From Balamuthia mandrillaris (taxonomy: Eukaryota), in assembly GCA_031835245.2 (NCBI GenBank), contig JAVKOQ020000009.1, positions 248,001 through 312,000 of the forward strand: a DNA stretch of 64,000 bases, given 5' to 3'. The notes under the pieces were generated by a model, which saw only the letters and a program-made list of their open reading frames with translations, had not been told where the DNA came from and made no database searches. Below, in pieces: positions 11,362-45,904 of the stretch. The stretch's first letter is position 1, and every line of letters begins with the position of its first letter. Both the position numbers and the translations under genes were made by a program.

Positions 11362-12423
11362 CTAGACTCCTTCGTTCCTTTGCCAGTCCGATGGAACGCT
11401 GCCCACGGACTTCATTCGCAACCTGACGGCAACGCCCGAGTTATAAATGTTGGCCATCGGCCACAACCTTTTGCTTTGCGGATGAAGCGGAACGGTCTCA
11501 GCCCACTGGCCATCAAGAAAGTATTGGATCTCCCTCCGGGCAAAGTCCAACAACGCGCCCACCACCTGTCCTCCCTTCCACCATTGACACACCCTGCGCG
11601 TCCCCGAGAAGGAGGTTGGCCTCCCAAGCACTTCATCATGGCGCACAGAAAATAACGTGGATGAGAAAGGAGCCACTAGAAATGGACCCTTAAGAACGAA
11701 AGCCATGGCCATGAGGAAGCGTACCGCTGTGTGAAGCGCTCCTGTTGTTGCCCCAGCTGTAACATACCTGGCTTTGTTCGGCATGGTCCGCGAATTCACG
11801 CCTACAAGGGTCAAAGCCGTCGTCTATGAAGCCCACGCTCCAGATGTAGTCGTTGCACTTCTCGATGTGAAACTCGAGAGCGACGATGCCCGAGCTGAAG
11901 CTCTGTTTGCTGCGTATCGTCAAGTACGCGGAGGGCTCTGCGCCTCTGATGAGGAAGATGAGTTGGAGTACGGTGCGACGAGAAGGAGGGAGGAAAGGTA
12001 TTACTGTGGCCAAACCAACAAACTGGGGCTGGGAAAGGAGAGCCTGTCTGCCAGGTGCTTGGTAGCTCCCTCTTTGGGATCCCAAGCCAAACAAGAATCT
12101 TGAAAAGAAAAAAAAGTGGTTGTAGAGAATGAGAAAGAGAAACACGACAGAGAGAACGAGCGAAAGAGATGGAGAAGCCACGCATAGGAACCTCGATAGT
12201 GGTGGAACCAGGAGGGTTGCTCCTCCGTAATGTTCAGCACGCCGAGGTCCCGCTCGCAACGAGCCCGCCACACGGTTTCCTCCAACACGGCAGCCAAACA
12301 GGTGGAGGAGAGGAGGAAGCAGGAGGGATAAAGCTCCTTGGTGGGAACGAAGCCAAAGATCATGGCCAGGACCTCCCTGGGCAGCTCCTCCAGCTGCACC
12401 CCTTCTTCCTTGTTGCTCTCCAT
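11362..12423 (-). CDS. F-box/SPRY-domain protein, tandem copy 1
   Basis: F-box LEELPREVLAMIFGFV; SPRY-like IRSKQSFSSGIVALEFHIE, WSVGFID, VVGALLDF...IQYFLDG, LWPMAN. Confidence 0.85.
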
Positions 12424-12499
12424 TTTCTTTATTGCCTGTATCCTATATTGTTCAAGACGTCATGAATGTCGACGACCATGGCTGCTGGTGCCGCTTGTG

Positions 12500-13686
12500 C
12501 TACTGCCACTCGGGAGGCTTGGAGCCCATGGACTTGAGTCGTATCCTCACGGCATTGCCCGTGCTGTACATGCTGGCCATGGCCCACAATTCTTTGGACT
12601 CGGGGTCGATGGGCAAAGTCTCGTTCCATTTGCCGTTGAGGAAGAATTGGAGCTCGCGCTTGTCAAAGTCCAACAGAGCTCCCAACACGTCCCCTGCCTT
12701 CCAGCCTTCCAGCGGTTTGCGTTGTAGAGCGAAGCCGGTTCCGCTGCCAGTTACTGATGCCAGTTTAACGTTAGGACACAGAAGAAGAAGAAGAACAGGA
12801 AGAAGAAGAACAGGAAGAAGAAGAAGAAGAAGAAGAAGAAGAAGAAGAAGAAGAAGAAGAAGAAGAACAAGAAGAAGAAGAAGAAGAAGAAGAAGAAGCA
12901 GAGAGCAAAACAAATGTTGTACCAGTGTGTGAGGAAAATTTCTTATTGCACCAAGTGTAACAAACCTCGCGACGTGGATGGGTGAACTTACGTCTACCCA
13001 CATCAAAACAATCATCGATGAAGCCAACGCCCCATGTGAATTCGTTGCATTGCTCGATGACGAACTCCACCGCCACAACGCCAGAGCTGAAGCTTTGTTT
13101 GCTCCGGATGATAAAATAAGTGTGGCATCTGTGTTGGATGTGCACAAGGATGATGAACCACGTCAAAGAGGAAGCATAGGGAAAAAAAAAGAATAACGAG
13201 AATGAACAAGGGTACTCTGACGTCTTGGGCCAAACAACCAGGTCAGCAGAGGGAAAGGTGATGCCGATCTCACGCGCCCAGCAGAAGGTGTGAGGCTTTT
13301 TCGGCATCTCGTTGTCCCACTGCAAACAAGAGTCTGGTGCTTCGTGAGTTGCTCGGGTAGTTATGTTGTAAAAAAATAAGAAAGAACTGAAGACAAGAAG
13401 AAGAACAAGAACAAGAACAAAAAGAACAAGAAGAAGAAGAAGAATTAAGAAGAAAGAATAGCAAGACAGGAGCGAGGAAGGAACCTCGGTAGTTGTGAAG
13501 CCAGGAGGTCGTGCCCTGAGCAAGCTGGGTCAAGCCGAGGTCCTGCTCGCAACGGGCACGCCATGCAGCCTCGTCCAAGACAGCCTTCAAACAGGTGGAG
13601 GAGAGCAGGAAGCACGTGGGGTAGAGCTCTTTGGTGGGCACGTACCCAAAGACCATGCCCAAAACCTCCACCGGCAGCTCTTCCAT
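12500..13686 (-). CDS. F-box/SPRY-domain protein, tandem copy 2
   Basis: MEELPVEVLGMVFGYV; IRSKQSFSSGVVAVEF; GWKAGDVLGALLDFDKRELQFFLNG. Confidence 0.85.
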
Positions 13687-13842
13687 GCTCGTTTCTCACT
13701 AGTTGCTTAAAGCACACAAAATGAATAAGAGGTTGAAAGAGAGTCCTTGCTTTTCTTTGTTAATGAATGAAAGACTTGGTTAATTCATAAAGCACCACAA
13801 ACCCAGGTTGAGCAGCCTGTATCAAACCAGAGCACAAGAGCA

Positions 13843-15338
13843 TCAACGCAACTCCCATTCTGGAGGCCGGGAACCAATGGACTTGAGCCTCACCCTCACA
13901 GCGTTGCCCGCGTAGTGCATATTGGCCATGGCCCACAACCTTTGGGATGCCATATGAAGCCTCACGGTCTCGTTCCATTTGTTGTTGCGGAAGTACTGGA
14001 TCTCTCGTTTGTCAAAGTCCAACAAAGCTCCCAACACGTCCCCTTCCTTCCATCCCTCCAGCACTCGACGTCTCTGAGAAAAGATAGTAAAGCTACCGGT
14101 CACTTATAATGATTTTGTATGTTTGGAAGATGGAACAAAACAACGTTATTAACAACAGGTTAAAAGAAAGCAAAAGAGAAAGATAAAGTTACCACTGTGT
14201 GAAGCGTAAGCCCTATTGCACCAACTATAACAAACATCGCGAAATGGCTGTATGAACAGCCGGCTGCAAACATCAAAGTTTTCATCGATAAAGCCAACGC
14301 TCCATGTGCAGCCATTGCATTGTTCGATGAGGAACTCCACCGCCACCATGCCCGAGCTGAAGCTCTGTTTGCTCCGTACTGTGATGTATCCGAGTCCGCT
14401 TTTGTGAGTTTGGAAACACAAGTCAAACAACCCATTGAAAGAGACAACAGTACAAGGGGCAAGGTACACTTTGGGTGGCCAAACGACCAAGTCGGCGGTG
14501 GGAAATGAAATGCCACTAACCCAGGAGAAGGGCGGAGCAGTCTGTTTCAGTTTTTCACTGTCCCAAACCAAAAGAGAGTCTTGCAAAGTTGTCAAGTGAA
14601 GAAGAAGAAGAAGAAGAAGAAGAAGAAGAAGAAGAAGAAGAAGAAGAAGAAGAAGAAGAAGAAGAAGAAGAAGAAGAAGAAGAAGAAGAAGAAGAAGAAG
14701 AAGAAGAAGAAGAAGAAGAAGAAGAAGAAGAAGAAGAAGAAGAAGAAGAAGAAGAAGAAGAAGAAGAAGAAGAAGAAGAAGAAGAAGAAGAAGAAGAAGA
14801 AGAAGAAGAAGAAGAAGAAGAAGAAGAAGAAGAACAAGAAGAAGAAGAAGAAGAAGAAGAAGAAGAAGAAGAAGAAGAAGAAGAAGAAGAAGAAGAAGAA
14901 GAAGAAGAAGAAGAAGAAGAAGAAGAAGAAGAAGAAGAAGAAGAAGAAGAACGAAGAAGAACAAGAACAAGAAGAAGAAGAAGAAGAAGAAGAACAAGAA
15001 GAAGAAGAACAAGAACAAGAACAAGAAGAAGAAGAAGAAGAAGAACAAGAAGAAGAAGAAAGGAGAACAATAACAAGAACAAAGAACGAAGCAAAAGAAG
15101 ACAAGAAAAACATAAAGCGAGGAAAGAAACCTCGGTAGTTATGAACCCAGGAGGTCTTTCCCTGCGCAAGCTGGGTCACGCCGAGGTCCTGCTCGCAACG
15201 GGCACGCCATGCAGCCTCGTCCAAGACAGCCTTCAAACAGGTGGAGGAGAGCAGGAAGCACGTGGGGTAGAGCTCTTTGGTGGGCACGTACCCAAAGACC
15301 ATGCTCAAAACCTCCACCGGCAGCTCTTCCATGCTCAT
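13843..15338 (-). CDS. F-box/SPRY-domain protein, tandem copy 3
   Basis: MSMEELPVEVLSMVFGYV; VRSKQSFSSGMVAVEF; GWKEGDVLGALLDFDKREIQYFRN. Confidence 0.85.
14597..15060. repeat. Long (GAA)n trinucleotide tract in intron 1 of F-box copy 3
   Basis: About 460 bp of near-perfect GAA repeats with occasional CAA. Confidence 0.95.
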
Positions 15339-15430
15339 TTCTTCTCTCTCTTGTTGCAACAGAGAAGAATACAAACGCAGATGTTCAACTATCATGACGC
15401 CACGAGGCGTGTTTACAATATAAGACACCA

Positions 15431-15904
15431 TTACACGCAACGTAACTGCCATTCAGGAGGAGTGAAGCCCACGGCCTTGAGTCGTATCCGTACAGCGTTG
15501 TCGGGGCCGAACATGTTGGCCACAGCCCACAACCTTTTGGACTTGGGGTACATCTTCAGCGTGCCCTTCTGTTTGCCGTTGCGAAAGTATTGGATCTCTC
15601 GCTGGTCAAAGTCCAACAAAGCCCCCAACACGTCCCCTTCCTTCCATCCACTTCTCTCCAGGCGTTGCTGCGAAAAGGAGCATTTGGAACTGTACCAGCT
15701 GTAACTAACGGCGCGGTCTCTTCGAAGGGACCCATGCGTTGCGATGGGGAAGATCTCATCGATAAAGGCAACTCTCCAACTGCATTGGTTTTGTTGTTCA
15801 ATGATGAACTCTATCGCAATGAGTCCTGTGCTGAAGCTTTGTTTGCTCCGCACGGTTGCGTATCTTGGTCTCAACCTAAGAAACGAGAAAGAGAAAAGAG
15901 AAAC

Positions 15905-15947
<43 letters not shown>

Positions 15948-16177
15948 GCAAAAGCCTATAAGGATAGAGAAGAGAAAGAAAGCTGAAACAAAATGAAGAC
16001 ATGCAAGCAGAAAGAGAGAAACAGAACCAAAAACACAAACAAGAGACAGCCCAACGCATACCCGTCTTTGGCTGATGGGCAAACAACCAGATTGGGACTG
16101 GAAAAGCTAACAAAGGGAGGCCTATCCAACTGGTCCCATACCAAGCGGGAGTCTGCAAAGGTTTGTCTTGTCAGCAC

Positions 16178-16218
<41 letters not shown>

Positions 16219-16457
16219 AAAGAACAACCTCGATAGGTCCAATACCAGGAGGACGTGCCCTCGGCATGCTCCGTCACGCCAAGATCCCAGGCACAACGAG
16301 TGCGCCAGGCAGGCTCGTCCAACGCTGCCTTCAAACACGTGGTGGACAGCAGGAAGCATGACGGATACAGACGATTGGCGGGAATGAACCCAAACACCAT
16401 GGCCAAGACCTCCCCTGGAAGCTCCTCCAACGACACCACAACCTTTTTCGTCTCCAT
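15431..16457 (-). CDS. F-box/SPRY-domain protein, tandem copy 4
   Basis: SLEELPGEVLAMVFGFI; VRSKQSFSTGLIAIEF; GWKEGDVLGALLDFDQREIQYFRNG. Confidence 0.85.
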
Positions 16458-16539
16458 CTTTTTGCTCTTGGTTCCTTTTTTTTTGTTCTTCGCGTTACAG
16501 TCGTGACGTCTCGAAGACCGTCTACTTCCAGCTGGAAGA

Positions 16540-16660
16540 ATGGCCATTCGTGAGGGATGGAACCCAAGGGACTTTGTTCGAATCCTCACGCCGTTGCCCG
16601 AGTTCAACACGTTGGTCATGGCCCATAACCTCTTGGACTCTGGGTGAAGCTCATTCGTTG
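16540..16660 (-). pseudogene. 3'-end relic of a further F-box/SPRY copy with a frameshift
   Basis: LHPESKRLWAMTNVLNSGNGVRIRTKS, then a frameshift to LGSIPHEW. This matches paralog C-termini such as VRIRLKSMGSKPPEW. No F-box or SPRY N-terminal part lies upstream. Confidence 0.7.
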
Positions 16661-16849
16661 TTGTGGAAGTACGGGAATTCACTTCTTCCAAAGCCAATGC
16701 TAGCGCATCCCCCCCCCCCCCCCCTCCAGCACTTTCTCGACAGTCACTGAGGTGAAAGAGTGAAAAGAGACAAGAGAGAAAAGTGGAGAGAACAGTGCGC
16801 CCTTTCCTTCCCCTTCCCTCTCCTGCCCAACTCATTGTTAACCCTTCTG

Positions 16850-16905
16850 TCTTTTTCTCTTTCTCTTTCTCTTTCTCTTTCTCTTTCTCTTTCTCTTTCT
16901 CTTTC

Positions 16906-16948
<43 letters not shown>

Positions 16949-17020
16949 TTCTCTTTCTCTTTCTCTTTCTCTTTCTCTTTCTCTTTCTCTTTCTCTTTCT
17001 CTTTCTCTTTCTCTTTCTCC
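16850..17020. repeat. (CTTTCT)n microsatellite, probably within a + strand intron (GT 16795 ... AG 17026)
   Basis: Visible hexamer repeat flanked by a GTGCGC donor-like and a CTCAAG acceptor-like site. Confidence 0.8.
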
Positions 17021-17298
17021 CTCAAGAGCAATCCTGGGCACGACATGAGATATCGGGATGAAAGAACTTAACAACGTATACCAGAGCGTGCTCAAATATC
17101 TCTTTTTGGAGAACAGTTCGCCGTCGGAAAAGACTCCGTGGTGGTGCAGGTTGAAGTAGTCTTCGTATATTTGGCTAGAAAATAAGTCAAAATAACTCCT
17201 CATCAAGCACCTCAAGTTAAGTTGGATTTGGTGGCGGAGTGCCGCTCTGCCAGGTTGGGTTGAAACTGCGAAAGAAGGAGCACACATCAACAATACCG

Positions 17299-18228
17299 AT
17301 GGAACGCCCTCGCAAGAGAAGATGTATCCAATCAAAGCTGAACGGCTCGTTTGTGAAAACTTCAACAAATGCAGGGCCTTCCTTCTCTAGGGGTACGACT
17401 GAACCTGCAGAGGCGGAAGAAATAGTACTTTTGGAAGGAGACTGTGCTGAGAAGCTTTCCGATTTGCCAGACGAAAGCTTCCAGTGTTGCATTACCAGTC
17501 CGCCCTATTGGGGCATGCGGGACTACGGCGTATCCGGTCAAATAGGTTGCGAGAAAGACCTCAACGACTACCTTTCCAAGTTAGTGCAGATCTTTGCAGT
17601 AGTGCGGCGCAAGCTGACCAAGGATGGTACGCTGTGGCTTAACATCGGAGACACCTACACTAGCGGCAATCGGGCCACCAGAGCTACTGACCGAAAGAAC
17701 CCAGCCAGAAAGATGAACCATCGACCTCCCACCCCCGCGGGGCTGAAACCAAAGGACTTGGTGGGGCTCCCCTGGCGGCTGGCCTTTGCTTTGCAGAGTG
17801 AGGGGTGGTACCTCAGGTCAGACATCATATGGGAGAAGCCCAACTGCCAGCCAGAGTCAGTCAAGGATCGGCCCACTCGGTCTCACGAATATGTCTTCCT
17901 CTTCAGCAAATCCAAGAATTACTATTATGATGCTGCTGCAGTACAAGAGCCATCTGTGGATGCAAAGAAGTCCACCAGAAACCGCAGGACTGTGTGGAAG
18001 GTCAACACGAAACCCTACAAAGGCGCTCACTTTGCAACCTTTCCTGAAGAATTGGTGGAAATATGTTTAAAGGCTGGAACAAAGGAGGAATCTTGTGTGT
18101 TGGATCCCTTTTGTGGGACGGGAACAGTGGGTGCAGTGTGCAAGCAGATGTCCAAACGGCATTTTGTGGGTATTGAACTTAACCCAGAGTACATTGAGAT
18201 GGCAAGGGAACGTATCTCAAGCAACTAA
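17299..18228 (+). CDS. Beta-class amino DNA methyltransferase (N6_N4_Mtase family), likely N4-cytosine specific; intronless, bacterial type
   Basis: Catalytic motif IV TSPPYWG precedes SAM-binding motif I VLDPFCGTGT. Also GTLWLNIGD, PKDLVGLPWRLAFALQ, WYLRSDIIWEKPN.PESVKDRPTRSHEY, HFATFP and GIELNPEY. 309 aa from ATG 17299. Confidence 0.95.
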   Translation: MERPRKRRCIQSKLNGSFVKTSTNAGPSFSRGTTEPAEAEEIVLLEGDCAEKLSDLPDESFQCCITSPPYWGMRDYGVSGQIGCEKDLNDYLSKLVQIFAVVRRKLTKDGTLWLNIGDTYTSGNRATRATDRKNPARKMNHRPPTPAGLKPKDLVGLPWRLAFALQSEGWYLRSDIIWEKPNCQPESVKDRPTRSHEYVFLFSKSKNYYYDAAAVQEPSVDAKKSTRNRRTVWKVNTKPYKGAHFATFPEELVEICLKAGTKEESCVLDPFCGTGTVGAVCKQMSKRHFVGIELNPEYIEMARERISSN

Positions 18229-18263
18229 CCTGTTTTTTCTCAGAATAAATCTCACCGTTCACA

Positions 18264-18284
18264 CTATTTTGTTTCACCTTTCAA

Positions 18285-18325
<41 letters not shown>

Positions 18326-18353
18326 GAGAGAGACAGAGACAGAGAGAGCGAGC

Positions 18354-18402
<49 letters not shown>

Positions 18403-18996
18403 TGTCTGGTTGAGAAGGTGTTATACTCCAACGGGTGTCTTCCAGTCTGTAAAAAGGAGGGGTTTTTGTTGGTGTTTTAAGAACTATCTGCCACGTGATA
18501 CGAACAGACACAGAAGGGTCTGACTTGCCTTCTTTGGAATAGTCTCGCCATTTGCCTTTTGTTCTGAACCTACCGTACACGTCTCTCATTTTCCAGCTGC
18601 ATCCGCATCGCTTCGTTTGAAACCAAAAGTTATCGTCAACACGGGTGGTAGATATGAGCAACATACAAACCTGAAAGCAAAAGCCCAGCGTCAGCAAAGC
18701 AAAACCAAAAGATCCAAATGAAGATGTCCGCAATGAACGTTATGATAGTCATGATAATCATCAGCAGCGTCGAACAAGGACAACATAATGTCTTGAAGCA
18801 TGCACCGTGTTTCTTCGCCGTCTTTCCTTTTCATTGTTTTTGGCATGAAGTTATATTGTAAGCATTTTGCCACTGATGCTAAGCAGCTTTTGCAATACAG
18901 ACCGCAGCAGCATTGCATCCATACGGACAGACAACAGCAAGGTACGCCACCGCAGCAACCGATCTGGTGGCCGGTGAGAGCGTCGCTCTTCCCCAT
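18264..18996 (-). pseudogene. Cys-rich putative membrane protein, apparently frameshifted (pseudogene or assembly errors)
   Basis: MGKSDALTGHQIGCCGGVPCCC... continues plausibly only by changing frame into CFKTLCCPCSTLLMIIMTIITFIADIFIWIFWF and again into LLTLGFC...DNFWFQTKRCGC. The 3' end is uncertain. Confidence 0.35.
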
Positions 18997-19191
18997 TTTA
19001 TTTTTTTTGTTGCTTCTTTCTTGTTGTGCCAAAAGGCATCTGGTTTCTTTTTAACAACACACATATGATGTTACTGGAATTCGATATGCGAAGCTACGAG
19101 GTGTCTGCAATATCTCTGTTCATGTCGTCATGATAAGACGTCCACAAAAGAAAAAATTACATCGAAAGAGAGAAAGAAAGAAAAGCGAAAC

Positions 19192-20592
19192 ATGGAGAAG
19201 TACAAGAAGCCCTGGACCTTCATTGGGCAGGGAACCTACGGCGTGGTTCACAAGGCCGTCCAAAACGAAACCAAGCAGGTGGTGGCCATCAAGAAGATCC
19301 GTATGGGCAACGTGAGCGAAGAGGGCGTCCCCTTTGTTGGCCTTCGTGAAATCAAAATACTGAAAGAGATTCATCATCCAAACGTTGTTGGCGTACGTTT
19401 TTTTGCTTCTCCTTCTTCATCTTATTCTTCTTCTTTTCCTGTCTTTTTGATTGGTAAGTTCAACAAACCAGTTGCTGGACGTGTTTGCTCACCATGGTTC
19501 CATTTACCTTGTATTCGAATACATGGAAACGGATTTGGAGGCCATCGTCAGAGACGAAAACATTGTGCTCTCCCCGGCTGACATCAAGGCTTACATGTTG
19601 ATGCTGCTCCAAGGGCTGGAGCACTGTCATACCAACTGGGTTCTTCATAGGGTAATTCCGTCTTGTTGTTGTTCTTCTTCTTGCTCTTACTTTTCTCCTT
19701 CTCCTTCTCCTTCTCCTTCTCCTTCTCCTTCTCCTTCTCCTTCTCCTTCTCCTTCTCCTTCTCCTTCTCCTTCTCCTTCCCTTTCTTGCGTCTCCTTCTT
19801 GTTTCTCTTTCTCCTTCTCCTTCTTGTTTTCAGGACTTGAAGCCAAACAACTTGTTGATATCACCAAACGGAGTGCTAAAGCTGGCTGATTTTGGTCTGG
19901 CTCGCTTTTGGGGCAGCCCTGACCGTCGGTTCACTCACCAAGTCGTCACCAGGTTCTCTTCTTTCGTCTTCTCTAACTTATGATTTTTTTTCTCTCACTC
20001 AATTCAACCCGTACAGATGGTACAGAGCGCCAGAGCTGTTGTTTGGAGCACAAGCGTACAGCTCGTCGGTGGACATATGGGCTTGTGGCTGCATCTTTGC
20101 AGAGCTGATGTTGCGGCGGCCGTACTTTCCTGGCGACAGCGAAATCGATCAGCTTGGCAAGATCTTTGCTGCTCTTGGCACTCCCACAGAAGAGATTTGG
20201 CCGGTTCCGTTCTCTCTTCTTTCTCCTTGTTGTTTTCCGTACCTCTTCTTTCTTAACGTTATCTCTCTCTCTCGACATTGGATGATTGTAGGAGATGACT
20301 TCGTTGCCAGACTATATCGCGTTTGATCCATGTCCGGCCACTCCTTTCAAACAGCTGTTCACGGCAGCTGGAGACGATGCCATCGACCTCCTTTCACGGA
20401 TGTTAAAGTTTGATCCTGCTCAAAGAATCAGTGCTTCTGAGGTGTGTTTCTTCTCTCTTTCGCTTTTCTGTTTTTGCTCACCAAAAAAAACCATAACAAA
20501 AGGCGTTACAACATCCATACTTTAGTAATTCCCCAGCCCCAACTCCATCTGAACGACTCGTTCTTCCTAAAAAGAGCGTTGTCGCCAAGTAA
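19192..20592 (+). CDS. CDK7: Cyclin-dependent kinase 7 (CAK/TFIIH kinase), multi-exon
   Basis: [64 protein letters not shown]; the T-loop and C-terminus are CDK7-like. Confidence 0.88.
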
Positions 20593-20649
20593 TGTACATC
20601 CGTGCCTCTAAAGAAAATACCGAAGCAATAAAAGTAATAAAAGACCAAT

Positions 20650-21594
20650 TCATTCTTGCTTTTTGTCAGCAACAACTGTGGAAGAAGCATCTTCATTTGT
20701 TGTCTTTGAAGGTGTTGGTGCTGTTGGCTTTGGAGCGGTTGTGTAGAGAAAAGTGCCACCAAAGACCAGAGCAGTGCCCACCCAGTGATACACCGTGAAA
20801 GGATTGCCGAAATAGTTTACACTCACCAACAAACTGATAAACTTGCGAATGCTTATCACCAACGTCGTCGATAAGGAAGACAAGTTTCCTGTTTTCAGTT
20901 GCTCAGTAAGTCAGGTTACCACAAAACATGTGGAAGAACGAAGAGTAGAAAGACGAATAAACCTGTAAGCAAGAAAACACCACGGATGCAAATGTACTGC
21001 GTGACAATGTTGGCAAAGAGATAGACCCACATTACGGATAGGCTGGTGCCAGTGCCGGGAATGGTGACATGCTCCATTGTGTTCCAAAGGTCAATGTGCG
21101 TTTTCATGTCTCCCACCAGAAACACAAAGAAAGGCAATGCCAAAGCGTGCTGTTCCATATGAAAGTTAGAGAGAGTGGGAGAGAGAGAAGAACCGAAAAA
21201 TGAAAAAGAGAAGACAGAAGCAAACCGAATAAAACATAGTTTCTCGGTGAGGCTTTTCTTTGCCAGGTTGCTGGAATTGGATGTACGCCCATTCTTGGTA
21301 GAGGCCAAGAACAGAAGAAAGCAACAGAGCAGCTAACAGCATTGTTATGCCTATGAGAAACGTGGACATATGAAACGGCACTTTTGCTTGCGTCTGTATT
21401 GAAGATTGTGTTTTGTTTTGTCATAAATACGATTAACAAAAAACACCTAAAGAAGTGAAAAAGAAAGAACACGTACAGACTTCTGTTGGGCAGAAGCAAG
21501 AGTAGCAGTGATGATACCAACAGTGACTATCACTGCTGCCACGTATTGTTGCTTTGTGTACCTACAAATAGAAGTCGAAAGATTAAGGAGAGAA

Positions 21595-28535: not shown

Positions 28536-31500
28536 CTACTTATCATAATATCGCCGTTGATACTATTTTACGAGAGAAAAAAGTAGTGGGTGAGAGAGAG
28601 AAGCGGAAGAAGAATAAGAAGCAGAACAAAGAACACAACCGAACGAACAAACGAACAAAGAAGAAGAGCAGAGTACAGCAAGAAAGAAGAGAGAGAAGGG
28701 AAAGGAGATGGTAACACGTAACTAACCTCAATTTGTATCTGACGAGATCTTTCTACAGGCGACCACCACGGTCGAGTGAGAGCGTAAAAAAGGTCGTATC
28801 CATCCGCAAAATTCTGGAAAGGTGGTTTCTCCGAACCATAAGCAAACTTGATTTTCAGAAGATTGATAGCGCGAGGGATTAAGTAGAAGAGGAGCAAGCC
28901 CAAAAAGCCGAGAACCATGGTCTTGAGAATGAGCCAAAAGTACCAAAGGATGGAATCCAGTTGTTGGTAGGAGGGCTCAAACTCAGCGAACTTGTTTCGC
29001 AAGAACTCCTCCATGTTTTCTATCCGGACCAACAGATCTTCCACCTCCTTTCGAACGACTCTCACCGCCATTTCGGCTTCATTGCCTGCTGAATCCTTCA
29101 CGCTATAAAAAATCTGTTTGCAAGTAACAAAATTGTCAGCTGAATCGTCAAGAGAGAGAAGAGAAAAGAGAAGGAACAAAAAAAAAATAAAAAGGAGGTA
29201 TCAGAAGACTGTCGTGAAATAAAGCTCATCACATTAACCCTTCAGAGTGAGCTGAGTTACGGTTTCATCATTACAATTTCCTCCTTCAAGACAGAAGAGA
29301 GAGAAGAAAGAAAAACTCCCTCTCCCTCCGGCTCGGCCGAAAACAAGTTTCGCAAATCTAAATTTTCGAAACCATTTTTCTCCTTTCGAGAAAAACTGCA
29401 ATTTGGAAAATTTAAAATGGGGGAAACCCCCTATCGCTTCCCATTATGGGACAATAAAATTTGGAAGCGGACAAGAGAGAGGACAAGAGAGAAGAGAAAA
29501 AGAAGAGCGAAGAAAAGAGAGAGAGAGGGAGGGGGAGAGAGAGAGAGAGAGAAGAGGAGAGCGGGAGAAGCAGCGAGCGCTTACCATCCATTCGTTAGGA
29601 GCTGTGGTGCGATTGGTGATCATCACCTTGTGCGTGAGGTCGATGGCTCTGCCGTCCGGCAAGGGGTCATAGGCATGAAAGCCTCCGTGCTTCCACTCGT
29701 CGTAATCCTCGCCTGGATCGAACCACTGACAAACGCGGCAGGCTCTCATGACGACCACTTCGCCGTTCACCAGCTCGATAACGGGAGGGATGTTGTCCTT
29801 GCACACCGTTTCCCCGGTCTCCTCGTCCACGACCATGTCGAACCCCTCCATGCATTCACAGCGATAACTCTCGCCAACGCTTCTTCGTGTTGTGGCATCA
29901 GCGCGATCGTCATTCACGTACACGCAGCGAGCAAAAGGGTGACACTTGTGGCGACACGGATGGCCTTCCGGAAGGTCACAAGGATTAATCGGAAGAACGG
30001 TCACGTTTCTAATGACGGTGCTGACGGTCTGCCACTGCTGCTGTTCTTCATCTGATCGTTGAAGCGCGTCGTTGGATGAGGACGGAGCAGCGAGGGAGGA
30101 GAGGTCGAGGCTGCGTTTGGGATTGATGACGGTGTATTTGATTTGAAAGAGACCCGTTTCCATGACACGATCTGCCATGAGAGAAGGCGGTATGGATACA
30201 CTCACATGAAGTTTGTCGTCCATCATGGAAGAAGAGAAATATCCAGAGGACGATGAAGACGAAGAAGGCATCATCTTGTTTTCGTTGAGGGTGAAACCTT
30301 CCTCCACGTAGCTCTCACATTGACGGATGGCGACTGGATTTCTCCCTCTCAACAGGATGGCTGGCGGTTGTGGCATCGGATAACAATCTCTGCCATCGCC
30401 CACATAGCCCTCTTTGCATTGGCAGAGATACCCGCCCTCCGTGTTAGTGCAGTTAGCGAGAGGGGAGCAGCTGTCCGTCTCTCTTGCACACTCATCAATG
30501 TCGATACATGAGTAGTAGTCATCCGCTTCCTCAAAGCCCTCATCACAGAGGCACTTGTAGGAGCCTATGGTGTTGCTGCAGTGAGAGTGAGGAGGACAGG
30601 TGAAAGCTCCTATGCGGCACTCGTTCACATCCTCGCACCAACGACCGTCTCCCTGAAAGCCCTGCGCACACTCGCAGCGATAACCTTCAGGTAAGCTCGA
30701 GTCTTTGACGCAAGTGGCGCGCTCATGGCAGTCATGTGTCTCCATCTCGCAGCTGTTTTGGGGCTTGCAGAAGAAGCCGTTGCCTTCATAGTCCTCCTTA
30801 CAGGTGCACGAATAGCTTCCCTCCAGGTTGTGGCATATAGCGTGCTCATGGCAGTCGTGCAGGTTGCGCTCGCACTCGTTGACATCTCGGCAGACAAAGC
30901 CATTTCCCTCATAGCCTTCGAGGCAAGAGCATGAGAATCCACCCTTGAGGTTGGTGCAGGAAGCAAAGCTGTGGCAGGAGTGGATACCTTCCTTGCATTC
31001 GTCCACGTCCACGCACTTGAAGCCGTCCCCACTAAAGCCCCCCCGGCAGCTGCAGTGATAGTGCCCTGGCATATTCTCGCAGTCAGCATTCTCGGAGCAG
31101 GCATGCCTTCCTAGAGCGCACTCATCAATGTCCGTTACAATCACTGTTCTGTTCTTCTGGGCTACCACCGTGCTTATCGTTCTCGAAGAAGAGGAAGAAG
31201 AAAGAGCATTAGGCTCGATGGCTCGGTACTCGAGGATGTAAGTGCCCATTATGCCCGCGTTCATGCCAGCTGGTATCTCGTAGAAGACGTTCGCTTCCCG
31301 TAGGTTCGTTTCCTCCGCCTCTCCTTCTGTGCCTCCCGTTCGTTTTTGGGTACTTCTTTTTCTGCTCTTCACCACAAAGCCAGGGTCGATGTAAGACATT
31401 GCCTCCAGTTGGTTCAAATAAATAACGTCTCCCCCTCTCAACTCCAAAAAGATGAGCTCCGCTTCCTCCTCCTCTGCCAGGACCGCCTTGTGTTCTCCTC

Positions 31501-32149
31501 CTCTGCCTCTTTCGTCTCCTGCTTTTGCTCCACCCTCATCTCGCTCCTCCTCCCTCAAAATAGGGGAGAAGCGACCGGCCTGACCATAAGTGCAAGTGAA
31601 GCCATCCCCCTCGAAGCCTTCCTTGCAGAGACACTCGTAGCTGCCCAGCAGGTTTCTGCACTCTGCATTTCTATCGCAGGGCTGCAACCACAGTTCCCCT
31701 CCCTCACTCCTTGCTGCCTTCTTTCTTTCTTCTGCTTTCTTCTCTTCTCCGCCATGTTCTTCCTCTTCTTCTTTGGGATCTTGTTGGAGTAAAACACATT
31801 CATCAATGTCGTAGCAGCGTTGATGGCCATCTCCATGGAAGCCCGCACGACAGCGGCACTCAAAGCCAGCGAGGGCAGGCACGCAGTCGGCATGAGGGGC
31901 ACAAGGGCGGTCCCTACAACGGTCGCTAAAGTCCCTCGTGGTAAGAGGCTTGTTCCTTTGCAGCTGATGGTGGCGCCAATGATGCGTAGCAGCAGCAGCT
32001 TGAGGATCGACCCCCGCTGCTTCTGCTTGCTGTTGTTCGTGGTGGTTCGGCCTTGCCTGAACCACAAGCATAACAAGCCCTGGCAGCACGGCCAAGAAGA
32101 GCACCAGCAGCAACCGTCTCGCAGAGCCCTTCACGTCTGCTGTCCTCAT
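28536..32149 (-). CDS. Type I membrane protein with multiple Ca-binding EGF repeats and three DUF5011/Ig-like modules, 3 exons
   Basis: Signal peptide; repeated D(V/I)(D/N)EC...C..GF.GDG..C EGF units; PP.I.L.G...Y.(D/E)PGF and YSVKDSAGN modules; TM segment ILWYFWLILKTMVLGFLGLLLFYLIP. Confidence 0.85.
29198..29274 (-). ncRNA. Intronic box C/D snoRNA with two LSU rRNA guides
   Basis: Minus strand reads GTA-ATGATGA(C)...AACTCAGCTCACT-CTGA(D')...GTGATGA(C')...TTCACGACAGTCTT-CTGA(D)-TAC, with a GTA/TAC terminal stem, on the host gene strand. Confidence 0.88.
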
Positions 32150-32310
32150 CTTTGCTACTCCAATTCTTTTCTGTTTTGTTTATTTCCCTAATTATTGTCG
32201 CAATATTTTGAAAATTTGCGTTGTTATTGTTTATTTACACTTATTTCGTAATATTTTGATATTTACGCCAAATATTGATAAAATGATTCCACTGCGCAAA
32301 AAGAATTGCT

Positions 32311-35300
32311 TTACAAGAAGAGGAAGAGCGCAAAAGGACGAAGGAGGCGAACGGCCCACAGCGAGACGGCGAAAAGAGCGGCGGCTCCGCTTCCTTCCTC
32401 TCCTGAAGGCGGAATGTACGTATACAAGCAGCTGTCCTCATACTCGGCCACATACCCGTCCACGCCCATAAACTCTTCCTCCTCCCCTCCCTCCACTTTC
32501 ACGAACCTCAGCTCGTCCAAGTAGAGCACGATGGGGTCGGAGCTCCAAGGGCGCCCCAGCTGAACGGAACGAAGCTCCACCGAGTTGCCTTCTTTGTGGA
32601 GAGGGGCTAACCACTCATCGCTCAGTGGGACACGAACGCGGGTCCACCTGTGCTCGTCGATCAGGTAATTGTGGACATATTCCGCCGTCAGCTCCAGCCC
32701 TTCTGTTTCTTGACCCTCCTCATAGCCGCCAAAACGAAGCGACAAAGAAGAAAGGCGGCCGTAGCCTTCTCCCACTCGGATGAAGAACTCAAAATGGTCG
32801 TACTGGGCGAGGTCCAGGAGGAAGCGAGGCTCGTGGTTGGCGTCCGCGCAGTCGGGACAGCTGTGGTGGTAGAAGCCAAAGGCGCCGTTGGCGATCTCCA
32901 GGCGAACGGCATGCTCCCCGCAGAGCACTTGCTCCGTGTGAAGCCAATCGACAGTGGTGTTGCCTCTATCGCCGCTCCATTGAAGCGGGCCCCAACGAGG
33001 CCAGCCAGGTGGAGCTTCCTCTTGATACATAACTAGCACGGATGCATCCGATGCATCCTCCAGGCATTCCTCCACAACAGGAACTGGGTCAGGAGGGGCA
33101 CAGCTCAGGGATTCACAGCCTATGCGTCCTCCGATCCATCTGTCGTCGTGCAAACGAATGGCCACATAGAGACGGCCTGTGGCGAGGGCTTTCCATGCGT
33201 CGTGGCTCAAAGGGGTAACCCCCCGAATGGGGGATTGGGCGCTCTCCAAGCGAGCGTGCTTGGGATAGTCTTCCCCAAAGCCGCCCTCGCAGAGGAAGGC
33301 CTCTGCAGCGAGGTTTCCAATGTCATAGGGCACGTTCCAATGCAGCTCTTTGGTGGCTCTGTCAAAGTAGAGGAAGGCGTCTCCATTGTGACACAGGCTA
33401 GCACGATACTTTTCCTCCTGGAAGGTAGGAATAGGAATGCTGGGCACTTGGAAGTGCTTTGGGGCGCATTTCTCCTTGGTGGAGCAGGAAGTGAGGATGC
33501 GAAGGCTTAGGCCATCGTAGGCCCAATCATTGAAGTTCCAGCGATGGCTCACACCACCATACACATTTCGGAGATACACAAAGAGATGCTGAGTAGTGGT
33601 GTTGTAGAGGTACGTGTACGCACTTAGCTCGTCCATAGAGTCCACCTCGGTGAGTTCGAAGGGGTTGCTGCCCCATTGCGTCGAGGTAATTTGGAACGGA
33701 TAGGCGGCGAGCGGATAGGGTAAAGCAAAGATCATCCAATCACCGATGGCAGAGGAAGTCATGCTCAACGTACAATCAGCTGGAGTGGGGGTGTTGAAGG
33801 TGAAGCGAATGGTATAGGCACGACGAGGTTGCAGGTTCACCATGTACTGGAACTGATCCGCAGCGACAGCACGACCGGAGATCATGAGCTGATAACCGGC
33901 GGAGGCGTCCAGCTCTCCTTCATGAAGGGAATGGAACGTTGCTCGAATGGTCTCTCCTGAATGAGGGCCGAAAAGATCTGAGCTATAGTCTATTCCATTT
34001 TCACCTTTTCAATAAACGAAAAAGAAAGGTTTAGAAAAACAAATAACACAACAAAACAAACAAAACAAAACACGAGAGAGAGGAGTACCGAGAATAGGAA
34101 CATCAGGATCAAAAGTATTGTCAACGAGTTTGAACTTAACATATCCCTCTCTGAACGAATGACAAGCATAGCCATTCCATTCCTCTCTGTGCTCGCAGCC
34201 ATCATTGATCAAAAAGGTGCGATTGGAAACTACCCAACCTCCACCATAAAAGCCTGTAACGCTTCCATCCACGTCCAAAAAGTTGACACCTTTGGGACCG
34301 TCATAGAGTGTGTCAGGAACGGCGACAGGGTTGGCATTCTCGAAGCGAAGCTTCTCGTACTTGTTCCTCGTTTCCAGCATGAAAGGACCGTGAGTGAGGC
34401 AGCTGAGTGCTCCAGCAGCTCGTTTTTCGTTGGAGACAAAGTTGCGGAACTCGACGTTGCGAACATATTGAGGTCCGCCGTTGTCGTAGGACTCGTGACC
34501 CTTGATCACCCAGGTCTCCCATGGATAACGGATCGGTTGGCTTCTGTTGAAGTAATCTATCTTTCGTGATGGATTTCCTCTGTATTTTTATTTCATAGGT
34601 GTGAGAAAACAACGAGGAGAAGAGAGCAGAGAGCAGAGAGCAGAGAGCAGAGAGCAGAGAGCAGAGAGCAGAGAGCAGAGAGCAGAGCAGAGGCAGAGAG
34701 CAGAGAGCAGAGAGCAGAGGAGGAGAGAGCAGAGAGAGCAGAGAGAGCAGAGAGAGCAGAGGGGGAAGAGAGAAGAGAGAAGAGCAGGAAGGTACGAACA
34801 TGTTATCGCTTTCACCAACGATAAGAGAGTCTTCCAATAGAGAAGGACCCGGCACAGCGTTAAAGCCATGACGATTGTCCATCAGGACCAAGTCCACGAA
34901 GCGAAGTGGACCTCCTCTTGTCCAGACACCATATTCTCTGTTTTTATAGGCGATAATGCCCTCAAAGATAGCATCTATGAGGTCGTACTGCCACGCGTTG
35001 GGCTTGGAGACGATGTTGTAGGGTCCCAAGCGTGGATTGTAGGAACCAAGCTCAGTTGTGCCATCAGAACGCAACATGTCGTCTATTTGAACTCCTGTAT
35101 CTCCACAGCTGTATGTTCCACGAGTATTTATAACAAAGAATCAGCAACGAATAACACTTCAAAGGGAAGAAAACAAACCAACCTATGAGCAACGTTATCA
35201 GCAAAAGAGCCAAGTGGCGTCCATCTCGGTCTGACCTCCGGATGATTGATGTAATCTCCTTCCGAAACTCCCACGGGTGCATTTGGCAGAATGTACCAAA

Positions 35301-36780
35301 AGCCAAACTTGCCTCCCACGGCAGCGTTGTTGGTGACCACGTTATCAGGATTTGTGATCCAAAAGATAGAAGGTTCGGTGTCGGTAGGGATGACGGAACG
35401 GTCGGGGAGTTCAGTGGGCATGGGCTTGACGAGGATGCCTAGGTTGTGATGAAGAATGTTGTTGCGCTCTCCTCCTTCTTCGAGGAAGTAGCAGTGACCA
35501 AAGTTATCGAAAGCGACATTGTCTTCTACCTGAATGCCTTGTCCGTCTTTTTTGTTTCGTTTTTTGTGAACAAAAAGCATATAAATAAAACAAGGAAATG
35601 AAGGGTGTGAACGTACTATGAATAACAATGCAACGCTGAAAGTTTTGATAGAAAGAATTGCCTTGAACGACATAGTCACGTGCCTCCACGTCCAAAACCA
35701 GATGAAAGTGAACGGGATAGCGACCAAGCACTCCCTTTTGTCCCATTTTGGTGAACTGCACTCCCACTATTTCGAGCTGTTTTGCAGCTCGGATGATGAC
35801 ATGTCCTCCAAACTCGCTGTCGTCGGAGGAAGCATCTCCTGCAATCACTATTCTTCTCGATAGTAACCTTTTATTTGTTTTATTTGCGGTGGTATGGTGA
35901 GTTCAAACCTGAAGAAAGCAGTAAGAAGAGAGAATAAAACAAACCCAACTTCAGCTCGTTGATAGTCCTGTCCCCAATGCATAAATTGCAAGCCATCACC
36001 TTCCAGCGTGACACTATCACCATCCACGCTAGCGATGGTGTGTACCTCGCTCTGCTCCGGAAAGCTCTCGGAACCCAACATCCAGTTTAGAGAACAGGTG
36101 ACGCCATTGGGAAGCTCGTTGCAAACGGGTACCTCCTCCTTCTTGTAGATAGCAGAAAAGTCGGTCGAGGCAATTACGATCTGATCCCCGACTCTCCATC
36201 CTCCCTCCACAGCGTCTTCCAATCGTAAAACGGTGTCTCCTCGTTGAGCGGTCGCACGGAGACGAGTCCAAGTGGGAATGGAAGAAGACAAAGGAAGCTC
36301 GCCATAAAGTTGCAGAGAGGCACCAGAGGCAATGGCCAGTCCTTTGCTGCCGTACTCTCCATCCGAGCCGTCGACGTAATCCGGATGAAACATGGTAGTG
36401 TTCAGGGTGCGTTCTCCATGAAAAGTGAGGCGGATGTTGTGCGTGATGGGACAGTCGCTGCTGCCCATGATAAGCTTGGCGTTCTTATTGACCAGCAGCC
36501 AGTCCACCTCCAACGCGAGGCCCTCCACGTCGTCAAAGATCAGTTCGGCGCCAGAGTCGACGATGAGGTAGCCTAACTTGTGGGCTGGCGAGGAGCTGAG
36601 CTTTACTTTTTGGCCGGAAGTGAGGACGACGTTTTGGTTGGGAGAGGAGATGGTAGGGAAGGCGGTGAGGTCGGAACGGTGGTGCGGGCAGGCCGCGAAG
36701 GAGGTGGAGGTGCCCCAACCAAGAAGAACCACCACCAGGAGAAAAAAGAAGGGAAGCATAGGAGTGATGATGCTGCCCAT
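32311..36780 (-). CDS. Secreted or GPI-anchored G8-domain/parallel beta-helix protein (CEMIP/TMEM2/fibrocystin-like) with CHRD-like and CBM-like C-terminal modules
   Basis: G8 region (LIMGSSDCPI...ITFHG-like, WTRLRAT), GWRVGDQIVIASTD, FGGHV, GQKGVLGRYPVHFH, GHCYFLEEGGE, FWITNPDN, NAAVGG.FGFWY; hydrophobic N- and C-termini. Confidence 0.85.
34620..34785. repeat. (GAGCAGA)n intronic microsatellite
   Basis: Visible tandem repeat in an intron of the G8 gene. Confidence 0.85.
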
Positions 36781-37216
36781 CTTTTTTTTTGTTTGTTAAG
36801 CTTGGGTTTCTCTTTTGCTGCCCTTTTTTCTTGTTTGTTGTATGGTACAATTGGGAGGCAAAAACGAAGAAGAGGAGTTGCTTAAAATATTAGTACAAAC
36901 CGTCCTTGGCAGCAGGGTCGGGGTAAGTGTTACTTCCTTCTGGACGATCAGTAAAGGCAAGTGTTTCAGTAACGATGTCCAGAAACGCATAATGCTAATT
37001 CCCGAAAAATCCCGATGATGATGATTGCCTTTATAATGTAGGAATCCAAATAATAATAATTAATAAAATCAATGCATTTGATTGGTCCATAATAATAATA
37101 ATTCTGATTAATACAAAAACCAAGCTGGTGCAACGAGAAGGGAAAGTTTACAGAACGGGCTCGAGTCGTGAAAGAAGGAGACAGAATGAATGAATTTCCT
37201 TGTTTTTTTGTTTGCA

Positions 37217-39458: not shown

Positions 39459-42400
39459 TCAGATGGAGAAAGAGAGGATGGTTTCCAACTGCTGCGACAC
39501 CCGCTCCTTCTGGTGGCGATGGTGGAGCAGGGGCAGAAGGCGGATGTCGTTGAGGATGAAGGGAGCCACCTCCTCCCCAAACTTCTCCTCCAGAAAGGCC
39601 AGGGCGTGCTCCTTCAGCACCGCGAACGGAGCCACTATGAACGTGCACGCTTTGTCCCCCGAGCATTCATCCCCAAAAGTCGCCGTGGAAGAGGTTGCTA
39701 TAGCAAAGTTAACAAACAGAAAAAAAAAAGAACGTGAATTGAAATAGTACCTTCGCTGGGTCCTTCACCGTAGTAACTATAAGTACTTTCGGAGTCATCT
39801 TCATCGCCGTAATAGCCGCCATCTTCCTGTCTTCGTTTCCACAAGTTATTCGTTGACATCGTATCATAATCATACGGATGAGCAGGTTTATGGTGAAGAA
39901 TATTGGGTTGCTTTTTCTTTTTGTTCTTCTGCTTGCGGCGCTGATGGCCAGTGGTACCACCGCTTTTCTTCAAAGGTTTGGTGCTTGTTTTCGTTGTTGT
40001 TTTGGGTTCTCCTCTTACATGAGCTTCAACACTGTCAATCTCCGCTTCATCCTCCGTGTCGACCGATCCTTCTGTGTGCTGAAACCGGGCATCCTCTTCC
40101 TCTACTCCACAACCACTATCATTTTCGTTTCTGAATCTTTCCTCCGCATCATCGCTAGACTCGTCGTCGTCATCAAACGAAGCAGTCGTTGTGGCAGTGG
40201 TATCATCATCATCATCATCATCATCAGATGTTGTTCGTGATGATGAAGAAGACATTGTTGCTGACCTCGAAGATGTTGTGGATGTTGAGGATGAGGTGGT
40301 TGTCGTAGTGATGGAAAGGTCATCCTCCTCAGCAAAGAAATGATGTGGATGTTGGTGATGATTGGGGAAGTGGTGATGGCTGCTAACAGCGGTAGACCAC
40401 GAGGGAAAATAATCTTCGGACAAAGGCTCTGCATCGATGCCTGCTCCTTTGAATAACAAAAGATCAGTGTCGACGTCATCCTTTTCTCCTCTGCTGGCCA
40501 TGTCCTCTACCTCCTCCATAAACGCCATTTCCGCTAGCTCTATTGCCGAGTTCTTTTTCTTGTTTGTGTTGTTGTCCTGTTGTTTCTTTGTAACGTGTTG
40601 TTTCTCTGAATGCTTTTTATCGTTTTTCTTCCGATCGTGCCCTTTGCTCTGTTGGTGATGAGCCCGAGAGACGTGCGAAGCTTTCTTTTCCCTATCTTTT
40701 TCTTTCTCTTTTTCTTTCTCTTTCCCCATCGCTGCCACCACACCAACCGAACCGTAAGGAGGGGACGCCAAGTCCATCCCATCCCAAGACCGATCCTGAG
40801 GGCCACCAAACTCCACTTCAGCATCCCAACTTTCACTGTCCAGCAGGTGTTCGAAGTCGAGGTTGAGAGACACATCATCGATGTTGTCCTTAGGGCTAGT
40901 GCCCGAAACAAAAGAGTGCTGGCGATGTTGACGCTGTTTGTCCATGGAGTCATTATGTTGATGGGTAGAACGTTTGTTGCGCTGCTGATTGCTGTTGTTG
41001 CTTTGTTGGTGCCGACCACTGTTGCCGCCTCGTCGAGATCCGCTATGATGATGGCGTGAAGAAGAGGCACGATTGTTATGCTTCCCGCTTCTTCCTCCAC
41101 CACTGCCGCCTCCAATTTCCCCAGAAGAGACCATAGCAGCCATTTGCCTTTGATAGTAGTCCTCTAAGGCCGCACATTTGGCTTCCACCACTGCAATCAT
41201 GTTCTCTGTCTCTTTGAGCTCACTGTTGATGCACTCCTGAATGAAGCCGCTGACGTAACCAGCCGCCATCACACAAACCGGAGAATGAGTCTCACTGCAA
41301 CTATTAGCTGTCGCAGTTGGAAGTCTTCCTCCGCATTTTGGACAAACACGAAGAGAAGACTCACGCGAGACCTTGTCTCGGCGATTGTCTAAGGCACGAT
41401 CTTCCTCGGAGCTGCTTCTGTCCTCTCCGGGCAAGCTTTCCGAGTCGCTTTTACTGCGTTGCACTCTATCAGGAGAAGAATGTTTCGCCCGCGTGGGGAC
41501 GCTGGATTGAGAAGAAGAAGCAGAGAAAGAGGGGAAAGAAGAAGTCGAAGAAGTAGCGGAATTAGAAGTCTGTGTGGACGTGGAGGTGTGTTGAACTTGT
41601 GGTCTTCTGGGATCTGGTGTGCTGCCTCTTCGTTTGGGTTTGACAGCGTCTTCTTGTGATTGTGGTTGTTGTTTTGTTGAGCCTTGGGGAACGAAGGCAC
41701 ATGTGCAGTCCTTGGACGAAGATGAATTCTGAGCGTTGCTCTTGTTGTCGGTATTGATATTGCTATTGTGTTCCTTATGGCAGCAAGCTTCTATGCTATG
41801 ATAGATGGTAAATCTAAAATACATACAGGAACAATCATAAGTAAATGATAAACAGGAAGTGTGACAAACAAAGCCAAGGACTGTAGGTTACCTGAAGAAA
41901 AAGTCATTGGGTGATTTCGGTTTGAAGACCGCCGATTGCTTCTCAATGACCACTCGGCCCCATCCAAGATTGGCCATGATGGAAGGCAAGCTCAGAATCT
42001 GCGCTTCCATGCCTTTGGTCCGCAAACCGGTCTTGCGTGAGAAGTGTCGATGGTCGCTGTTGCCGATGCTGCGACCAAGGTCCCACAGGAAGTTGATGGC
42101 AAAGTTTGTGGCCTCCTCTCGAAAGTCGCAGTGGGACGGATAGGTGGATTGAATAAAAGACAAAAAGTTGGTGGAAAAGGTGTGGCCCCTGAGGAAGACA
42201 TATCTCTCGCGTCTCACGCGGACGTAGCCTTTGGTGGGGTTGCAAACTTTGCCTTGCTGAAAGATCTTGTTGACAAGCAGGCTGCTGTGGCTTTGGATGT
42301 AGCCTAGTTGATCGTAGCCGGGAATAACTCCTTCGTGCCGTTCTCCAATGGTGGAGGCAAATGCGGCGGAAGTGGAGGGCAAGGAGGCCGGAGAAGTCTC

Positions 42401-45043: not shown

Positions 45044-45904
45044 GACACGAAGACAGGTAACCTGTCATACAGTGTTTGTTTGTTTGTGTTTTGCTGGTGG
45101 TGGTGCTGTCCAATGACAAGGTGAAGCCCGGTTGTTGTTTTCTCTTTTTTTTGTTTCTGTTTTTTTGAATGGGTTGAACTCCTTTTTTTCTTGTTTTCCT
45201 CCTCTCTTCCCTTTTCTTCTCGTTCTCCTTCTTCGTTGTTTTGTTGAGAGGTAGCGTGGGTGGGCGAGTGGGGATGACGCTAGCTGAGGAAAACGCGTAG
45301 CAGCGCACGATGATGGTGATGGTCTTAATGGGTTGAGTAGCAGGATACCAACTCGAAGGGCGATGTTCGTGGAGGAAGGAGGATGGATGGACGCACAGAG
45401 AAGATGAAAAGCAAAAAGAGGATAGTCGGCTGGGAATAAAAAAAAAAGATAAGATGGATGCGATGGAAGTGGGATAGACCAGCGGACAGATAGTCGATGG
45501 GAGTGGGATATGTAGCAAAGCGGATGGCCTGCGTGATAAACAAACAGGCTGCGGGATGAAGATGGATGTGGGTTCAACCCTCTCTACTTGGATGCTACAA
45601 GGAGGGAAAAAGTGCTGTCTAGGTCCTGGACAAAGGTGCACCACAGCCCATGCCTTCACCCTTCCGTTTGTTTTTTTTTAATACTTGGCTATGCTACGTA
45701 AAATAAAAAGCAAAGAAAATAAACTTGGAGAATGGTCAAAGAAAAACCAACAACAAACAACGTACTGCTTGCTCCTTCGGCACCGCTCACTGCGGTGCTT
45801 CAAAGATATTGAGAGTTGTTGAACAAAAAAAAGATTATCAAAAATAAAATAAAAAGCACCGCTTCACGAGGTGTGATCGCGGACACTTGTTTTTAAAGAA
45901 AAAA

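Follow-up and report, generated by a model that had tools for sequence, protein, structure and literature searches.

What is an intact DNA methyltransferase gene of a bacterial type doing in a chromosome of Balamuthia mandrillaris, a brain-infecting amoeba, where did it come from, and which sequence would its product mark? We addressed these questions by analysis of a 64,000-nucleotide stretch of DNA around the gene, referred to here as the window. The reading that we favor, at a probability of roughly 0.55 for the whole, is that the gene is an intact, nuclease-less member of the SmaI/Pac25I family that was gained horizontally from a stock held in common with pandoravirus enzymes, that it has been kept by selection, and that its product would place N4-methyl groups on cytosine at CCCGGG in the nucleus. 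The features of the gene are as follows.

16850 to 17027, + strand: predicted intron end in the 5' leader, a 175-nt pyrimidine tract ending in AG (from the sense-strand bias of such tracts)
17299 to 18228, + strand: N4-cytosine DNA methyltransferase ORF, 309 aa, beta class, SmaI/XcyI/Pac25I family (translation, Pfam, homology, and fold)
17308 to 17322, + strand: basic N-terminal peptide PRKRR, predicted nuclear localisation signal (sequence, with a putative function)
17497 to 17508, + strand: catalytic motif IV, SPPY, residues 67-70 (sequence)
17656 to 17760, + strand: YTSGNR...KPKDL stretch, putative specificity region (alignment with the pRA2, Xanthomonas, and Aeromonas methylases)
18103 to 18126, + strand: SAM-binding motif I, DPFCGTGT (sequence)
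18244 to 18249, + strand: possible polyadenylation signal AATAAA, 16 nt past the stop, weak (sequence)

Translation of 17299-18228 (+) gives 309 residues with zero stops from an intronless coding sequence, and the TSPPYWG motif precedes DPFCGTGT (residues 269-276), which is the beta order that the original prediction had described. Pfam N6_N4_Mtase (PF01555) matches the protein at an E value of 1.5e-52. The structure model has a mean pLDDT of 68.8, with values below 50 at residues 1-39 and in several loops, and its Foldseek matches are CcrM, the rotifer enzyme N4CMT, and M.PvuII (E 5e-19 to 1e-16, 21-24% identity). Pfam and the model reveal no extra domain in the 309-aa protein, and no chromodomain or other chromatin-reader domain. 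The YTSGNR...KPKDL stretch is common to CCCGGG-family enzymes; model pLDDT is low at residues 120-146. We prefer the ATG at 17299 over an in-frame GTG upstream at 17239 because the ATG agrees in the alignment with the start position of a second Balamuthia copy and of the pandoravirus proteins, both described below. Of 21 long microsatellite pyrimidine tracts inside assigned genes of the window, 19 lie on the sense strand, which makes such tracts a handy strand marker in this genome. Since such a tract lies on the + strand before the methylase, with its AG at ~17027, 272 bases before the ATG, this bias suggests that the transcript may carry a host-type spliced 5' leader. An adenine-methylase identity was also considered and set aside, the NCBIfam matches being sub-threshold and too distant.

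The flanks of the methylase are spliced eukaryotic genes, namely, F-box/SPRY copies (SPRY E 3.4e-5) and a CDK, so that the intact intronless ORF does sit among intron-rich eukaryotic genes as had been proposed. The two nearest of these features are given below.

16490 to 16730, - strand: final SPRY exon, degenerate, of an additional F-box/SPRY copy (tblastx against the other four copies, E 3e-10 to 4e-8)
19192 to 20700, + strand, end approximate: spliced CDK gene, CDK7/CDKD-like, used as a synteny anchor (domain and homology matches)

The F-box/SPRY-like genes form a tandem array of four, with the degenerate fifth last exon adjoining the methylase (11362-16730, - strand). For this fifth copy, we found no upstream exons, and 17020-17300 gave no tblastx match; the methylase sits in their expected place, and its insertion may have truncated the copy. 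On the other side, 18260-19050 (-) may hold a small unannotated gene for a Cys-rich or membrane protein, convergent with the methylase, in which a - strand pyrimidine tract at 18353-18397 suggests an intron; the small ORF at 18694-19002 had no useful Atlas match. Farther along, at 29444-36795 (-) and 39698-45064 (-), lie long-exon genes that, from their translations, we take to encode an EGF-repeat protein, a G8/TMEM2-like protein, and a V4R-like protein. The window holds no XcyI-like nuclease (tblastn, best E 0.98) and no SmaI-like nuclease (tblastn, no match at E<=1), which bears out the earlier statement that the methylase has no restriction endonuclease beside it. The cognate nuclease neighbor that characterizes a Type II restriction-modification system is therefore absent at the scope of 64 kb. 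Nor is the gene neighborhood that of a virus: the flanks are host genes, and in a comparison with two pandoravirus loci the methylase was the sole match, besides three weak pieces at E 2e-5.

The coding sequence is intronless and has microsatellites on either side, at which assemblies can be wrongly joined; this raises the concern of a contaminant or a chimeric join with bacterial or viral DNA. The best protein match, KAL6059288.1, is a second Balamuthia mandrillaris copy, 92% identical, on a contig of 130,949 bases; the protein of 17299-18228 is listed on a separate contig of 464,424 bases. Consecutive accessions place KAL6059286.1 and KAL6059287.1 (CDK) directly before KAL6059288.1 on the 130,949-base contig, and an exon of the CDK gene neighboring our methylase finds a B. 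mandrillaris CDK on that same contig. Two divergent methylase copies therefore each adjoin a CDK gene; they may stem from two strains or be haplotypes within a single assembly. Sequencing run X2, from another study, also carries the gene, in three overlapping contigs over 17030-18285 at a depth of about 9. These contigs differ from the window by a single synonymous change within the ORF and by 4 inserted bases upstream, and no one contig spans the whole interval. The composition of the gene is host-like: GC is 0.51 and GC3 0.57, compared with 0.48-0.57 and 0.47-0.82 in seven host exons and 0.64 and 0.72 in the P. neocaledonia gene. The best nucleotide match among the loci compared is about 71%. 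Because a 92% identical second copy has its accession next to a CDK and because run X2 comes from another study, a chimeric join, the assembly artefact that might have undone the original prediction, is very unlikely.

CCCGGG is the sequence cut by XcyI, and M.SmaI and M.Cfr9I mark its second cytosine. SmaI also cuts CCCGGG, and a phage homologue marks the first cytosine of the site (PMC4936722). Over residues 35-309, the Balamuthia protein is 60.4% identical to the methylase of plasmid pRA2, a record that we infer to be M.Pac25I, the pRA2 m4C enzyme for which the CCCGGG target was found experimentally (PMC4936722). The pRA2 methylase adjoins an XcyI-family nuclease, and the same holds for the Xanthomonas and Aeromonas matches that were checked. 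Among the 80 closest prokaryotic loci from a scan of 59/64 parts, an XcyI-like gene neighbors the methylase at 28; one downstream ORF per locus could be tested at 50 of the other 52 (two have no such ORF, and upstream ORFs lie outside the count), and 38 of these 50 match Pfam SmaI. A SmaI- or XcyI-family nuclease is thus found beside 66 of the 80. The protein also keeps 117 of the 120 family-conserved columns (those conserved in >=90% of 189 homologues), departing only at C84, H141, and E168. Taken together, the identity to the pRA2 enzyme, the nuclease-paired loci, and the retained columns lead to a strong prediction of CCCGGG as the target, in line with the likeness to CCCGGG enzymes noted in the original prediction and the target proposed from it. 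Many of the prokaryote-like homologues (P0008, P0015, P0021, and others) are fusions in which an XRE-type HTH domain precedes the methylase.

The original prediction had left room for a relaxed CG context, that is, a broad epigenetic mark like those of rotifer N4CMT and Marchantia DN4MT1. CpG is the site of action of the two eukaryotic 4mC writers known so far (N4CMT: PMC8885841, PMC10406627; DN4MT1: bioRxiv 2021.02.12.428880), and the Balamuthia protein has a predicted nuclear signal. With so many of the family's conserved columns kept, no added chromatin-reader or other domain, and only a distant likeness to N4CMT (E 1e-14, 21-23% identity), we regard this relaxation as improbable and do not carry it further. 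The comparison of observed and expected CCCGGG counts could be made in the 64-kb window, where one site was observed versus 2.1-3.8 expected; this depletion is not significant. With one CCCGGG in 64 kb, any mark would be sparse. The predicted mark is accordingly not a genome-wide CpG mark, and the predicted mode of action would be that of a restriction-system methylase minus its nuclease, outside the N4CMT family and unlike a rotifer- or Marchantia-style system.

Raw identity does not separate prokaryote-like from pandoravirus matches, both being at about 59-67%. In trees, the pandoravirus proteins are joined by the two Balamuthia copies and the metagenome proteins P0122 and P0016 in a single group that excludes every prokaryote-like row. 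The support for this group is SH-aLRT 99 in a quick tree of 126 rows (one 49-aa fragment dropped), 95/81 in a tree of 51 hand-picked rows with a phage outgroup and long outgroup branches, and 100/95 in a tree of 32 hand-picked rows with no outgroup. Five residues common with the pandoraviruses are rare in 168 prokaryote-like rows (C49, D55, T127, L157, and C272), the last being the Cys of DPFCGTGT, which is common to the pandoraviruses and absent from the 168. Among 191 proteins, 19 have a cluster of basic residues at the N-terminus, and 14 of these belong to the amoeba/pandoravirus group; this cluster might act as a nuclear localisation signal, and we hold nuclear import to be a weak prediction. 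An ancestry common with the pandoravirus enzymes is likely from these patterns. Of the three donors that had been put forward, bacterial prey, an endosymbiont, or a giant virus, the giant virus would fit best in all three trees, although the Balamuthia proteins are not nested in the viral clade.

That position, sister to the pandoravirus clade rather than within it, would be compatible with transfer in either direction. The gene may have passed from a bacterium to an amoeba long ago and then from amoebae to pandoraviruses, or the two may be separate gains, in which case P0122 and P0016 would belong to other amoebae. This route bears on the origin alone, leaving room for an active enzyme, and would account for seven columns that Balamuthia has in common with prokaryotes and not with pandoraviruses. 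It also agrees with an AU test in which joining the Balamuthia clade to the Pac25I-type bacterial enzymes was not rejected (p 0.196), with the lack of a close match to P0122 or P0016 in IMG/VR, and with a reading of the pandoravirus enzymes as host-derived (PMC12700378). Weighing on the other side, Balamuthia is the sole named eukaryote among the best 120 matches of a profile search, the A. castellanii proteome has no PF01555 match in the available text of PMC12344493, and virus-to-host transfer has been inferred for Acanthamoeba homologues that nest among pandoravirus and mollivirus methylases, one of them on a short contig (PMC7253447). We consider this reverse or independent route possible but doubtful. 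The same profile search bears on descent within eukaryotes, since vertical orthologs across that domain would have spoken against a horizontal gain, and none appeared in another named eukaryote among these 120 matches. Gain from the stock common to pandoravirus enzymes is the origin that we retain, and it stands apart from that of rotifer N4CMT, as first supposed, the two proteins being 21-23% identical and the Balamuthia one grouping with pandoraviruses.

The closest relatives, P0122/P0003 and P0016/P0186/P0187, sit on metagenome contigs of 1-2 kb, P0003 being 74% identical. P0122 begins with a basic peptide and a low-complexity stretch of acidic residues. P0198, a CDK of 309 aa from a contig of 979 bases, is 78% identical to the CDK exon and has the look of a transcript from a relative of Balamuthia. 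A metagenome scan of 3/64 parts returned zero members of the amoeba/virus group, and a 50%-cluster search with a motif screen added no member except one row of 496 aa.

Whether the gene has been maintained can be judged from the two copies, which differ by 13 substitutions in a 263-residue core. None of the 13 falls at the 120 conserved columns, where about 6 would be expected, and 0 of 20000 random draws were as low in mean conservation. Because both copies occupy the same locus and the substitutions avoid conserved columns, this protein-level comparison of two sequences suggests, with moderate strength, that selection has acted in the amoeba. From this comparison, limited to two copies, and from the linkage to the CDK gene and run X2, the gene appears to be a stable resident of the chromosome under selection.

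An opposing view is that the gene is a silent or decaying remnant of viral DNA, still intact only because it arrived recently, silenced by methylation in the host, and of no further use. Precedent exists in A. castellanii for an unexpressed, strain-specific viral DNMT, and most genes of viral origin in Acanthamoeba are methylated and silent (PMC12344493). CpG observed/expected is 0.58 in the methylase, from 35 CpGs only, versus 0.68-0.83 in the seven host exons, as silenced, 5mC-marked DNA might show. The second copy (P0002) is three residues short; among those missing are Q81, conserved in 98% of homologues, and I82, conserved in 95%. The two methylase copies differ at 8% of residues, while both contigs have one and the same CDK protein sequence on record. 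The three-residue gap, however, coincides with a GT..AG 9-mer at 17537-17545; it may be a gene-model artefact, with a micro-intron drawn around an assembly or real indel, or it may be real damage. The host-like composition, the possible host-type leader intron, the absence of any other gene from the two pandoravirus loci in the flanks, and the 0/13 substitutions at conserved columns speak against decay. RNA reads on 17030-18285 numbered 0, 1, and 0 in three runs, for 12,895,792 records of each (3-5% of the run) and without a control stretch, and favor neither view. We judge the remnant view unlikely, though it retains real weight, and a gene kept by selection remains our preferred reading.

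In the mechanism that we propose, the gene was likely gained horizontally from the stock common to pandoravirus enzymes and then likely kept by selection in Balamuthia. The product may enter the nucleus by way of its basic N-terminal peptide, where it would carry out SAM-dependent, base-flipping N4-methylation of one cytosine in CCCGGG, a chemistry established for the family. As the most speculative step, the sparse self-mark might shield the amoeba's DNA from SmaI/XcyI-type nucleases of engulfed or harboured microbes; the threat of such nucleases to the nucleus is an assumption here, and a protective role has been proposed for the orphan pandoravirus enzymes (PMC7253447). Perhaps the hosts of P0122 and P0016 methylate nuclear CCCGGG likewise. 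CCCGGG sites in A. castellanii resist digestion, which has been ascribed to CpG methylation (PMC7253447), and 1.3% of CpGs in that species are methylated (PMC12344493). The resistance is a puzzle given that figure and the lack of an annotated PF01555 protein, and a CCCGGG mark, instead of CpG 5mC, might explain it.

These findings place the Balamuthia gene next to several known systems. The nearest are the orphan CCCGGG methylases of pandoraviruses (P. neocaledonia AVK75685.1, P. salinus AGO84931.1, and P. dulcis AGO82875.1; 62-64% identity), which we infer to be the CCCGGG enzyme of PMC7253447. According to that source, all five surveyed pandoraviruses carry 4mC from orphan methylases, and the CCCGGG enzyme is kept in most. 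Like these enzymes, the Balamuthia protein has no nuclease partner (within the 64-kb window), a basic N-terminal peptide, and the common diagnostic residues; unlike them, it is encoded in a host chromosome among spliced genes, with host-like GC and no long C-terminal tail. With the Acanthamoeba homologues, it has in common that a giant-virus-type DNA methylase gene lies in an amoeba genome, but those homologues nest in viral clades, whereas the Balamuthia gene is syntenic in two copies and has a selection signal. Since Acanthamoeba copies of pandoravirus methylases were already reported in PMC7253447 and since the predicted target is rare (1 in 64 kb), the novelty of the locus is lower than assumed. 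We found no paper on a Balamuthia DNA methylase in the literature searched, in which subscription journals are thinly covered, and the available portions of PMC10471605, PMC8569187, and PMC12695648 make no mention of a Balamuthia methylase gene.

To the M.Pac25I/M.XcyI/M.SmaI/M.Cfr9I family, the protein is tied by 60% identity to the pRA2 enzyme and by the same motifs and inserts; it differs in having no nuclease in the window, a eukaryotic host, and an added basic N-terminus. The link to M.SmaI and M.Cfr9I is through neighboring nuclease families, not through their own sequences. Bdelloid N4CMT is likewise a beta-class N4-cytosine methylase of bacterial descent in a nuclear genome with the SPPY motif, which N4CMT needs for 4mC addition (PMC8885841), and Marchantia DN4MT1, compared by description only, is also a eukaryotic nuclear N4-cytosine methylase of bacterial descent. 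N4CMT, in contrast, has a chromodomain and introns (PMC8885841, PMC10406627); the Balamuthia enzyme is not its ortholog, has no chromodomain and no coding introns, and is predicted to recognize 6 bp in place of CpG. Rotifers and Marchantia are the only eukaryotic acquisitions of bacterial 4mC writers named in the available text of PMC12344493. If active, the Balamuthia enzyme would be an amoebozoan case of 4mC tied to giant-virus gene traffic, in an early state of domestication with the bacterial 6-bp target still kept, and the prediction is sharp: one motif and one modification. Tentatively, and with clearly less confidence than in the main reading, we suggest that it could represent an independent eukaryotic 4mC system, the third of its kind and the first in common with giant viruses, in which a domesticated methylase with its 6-bp target retained would serve as a "shield without a sword", next to the CpG-directed writers of rotifers and Marchantia.
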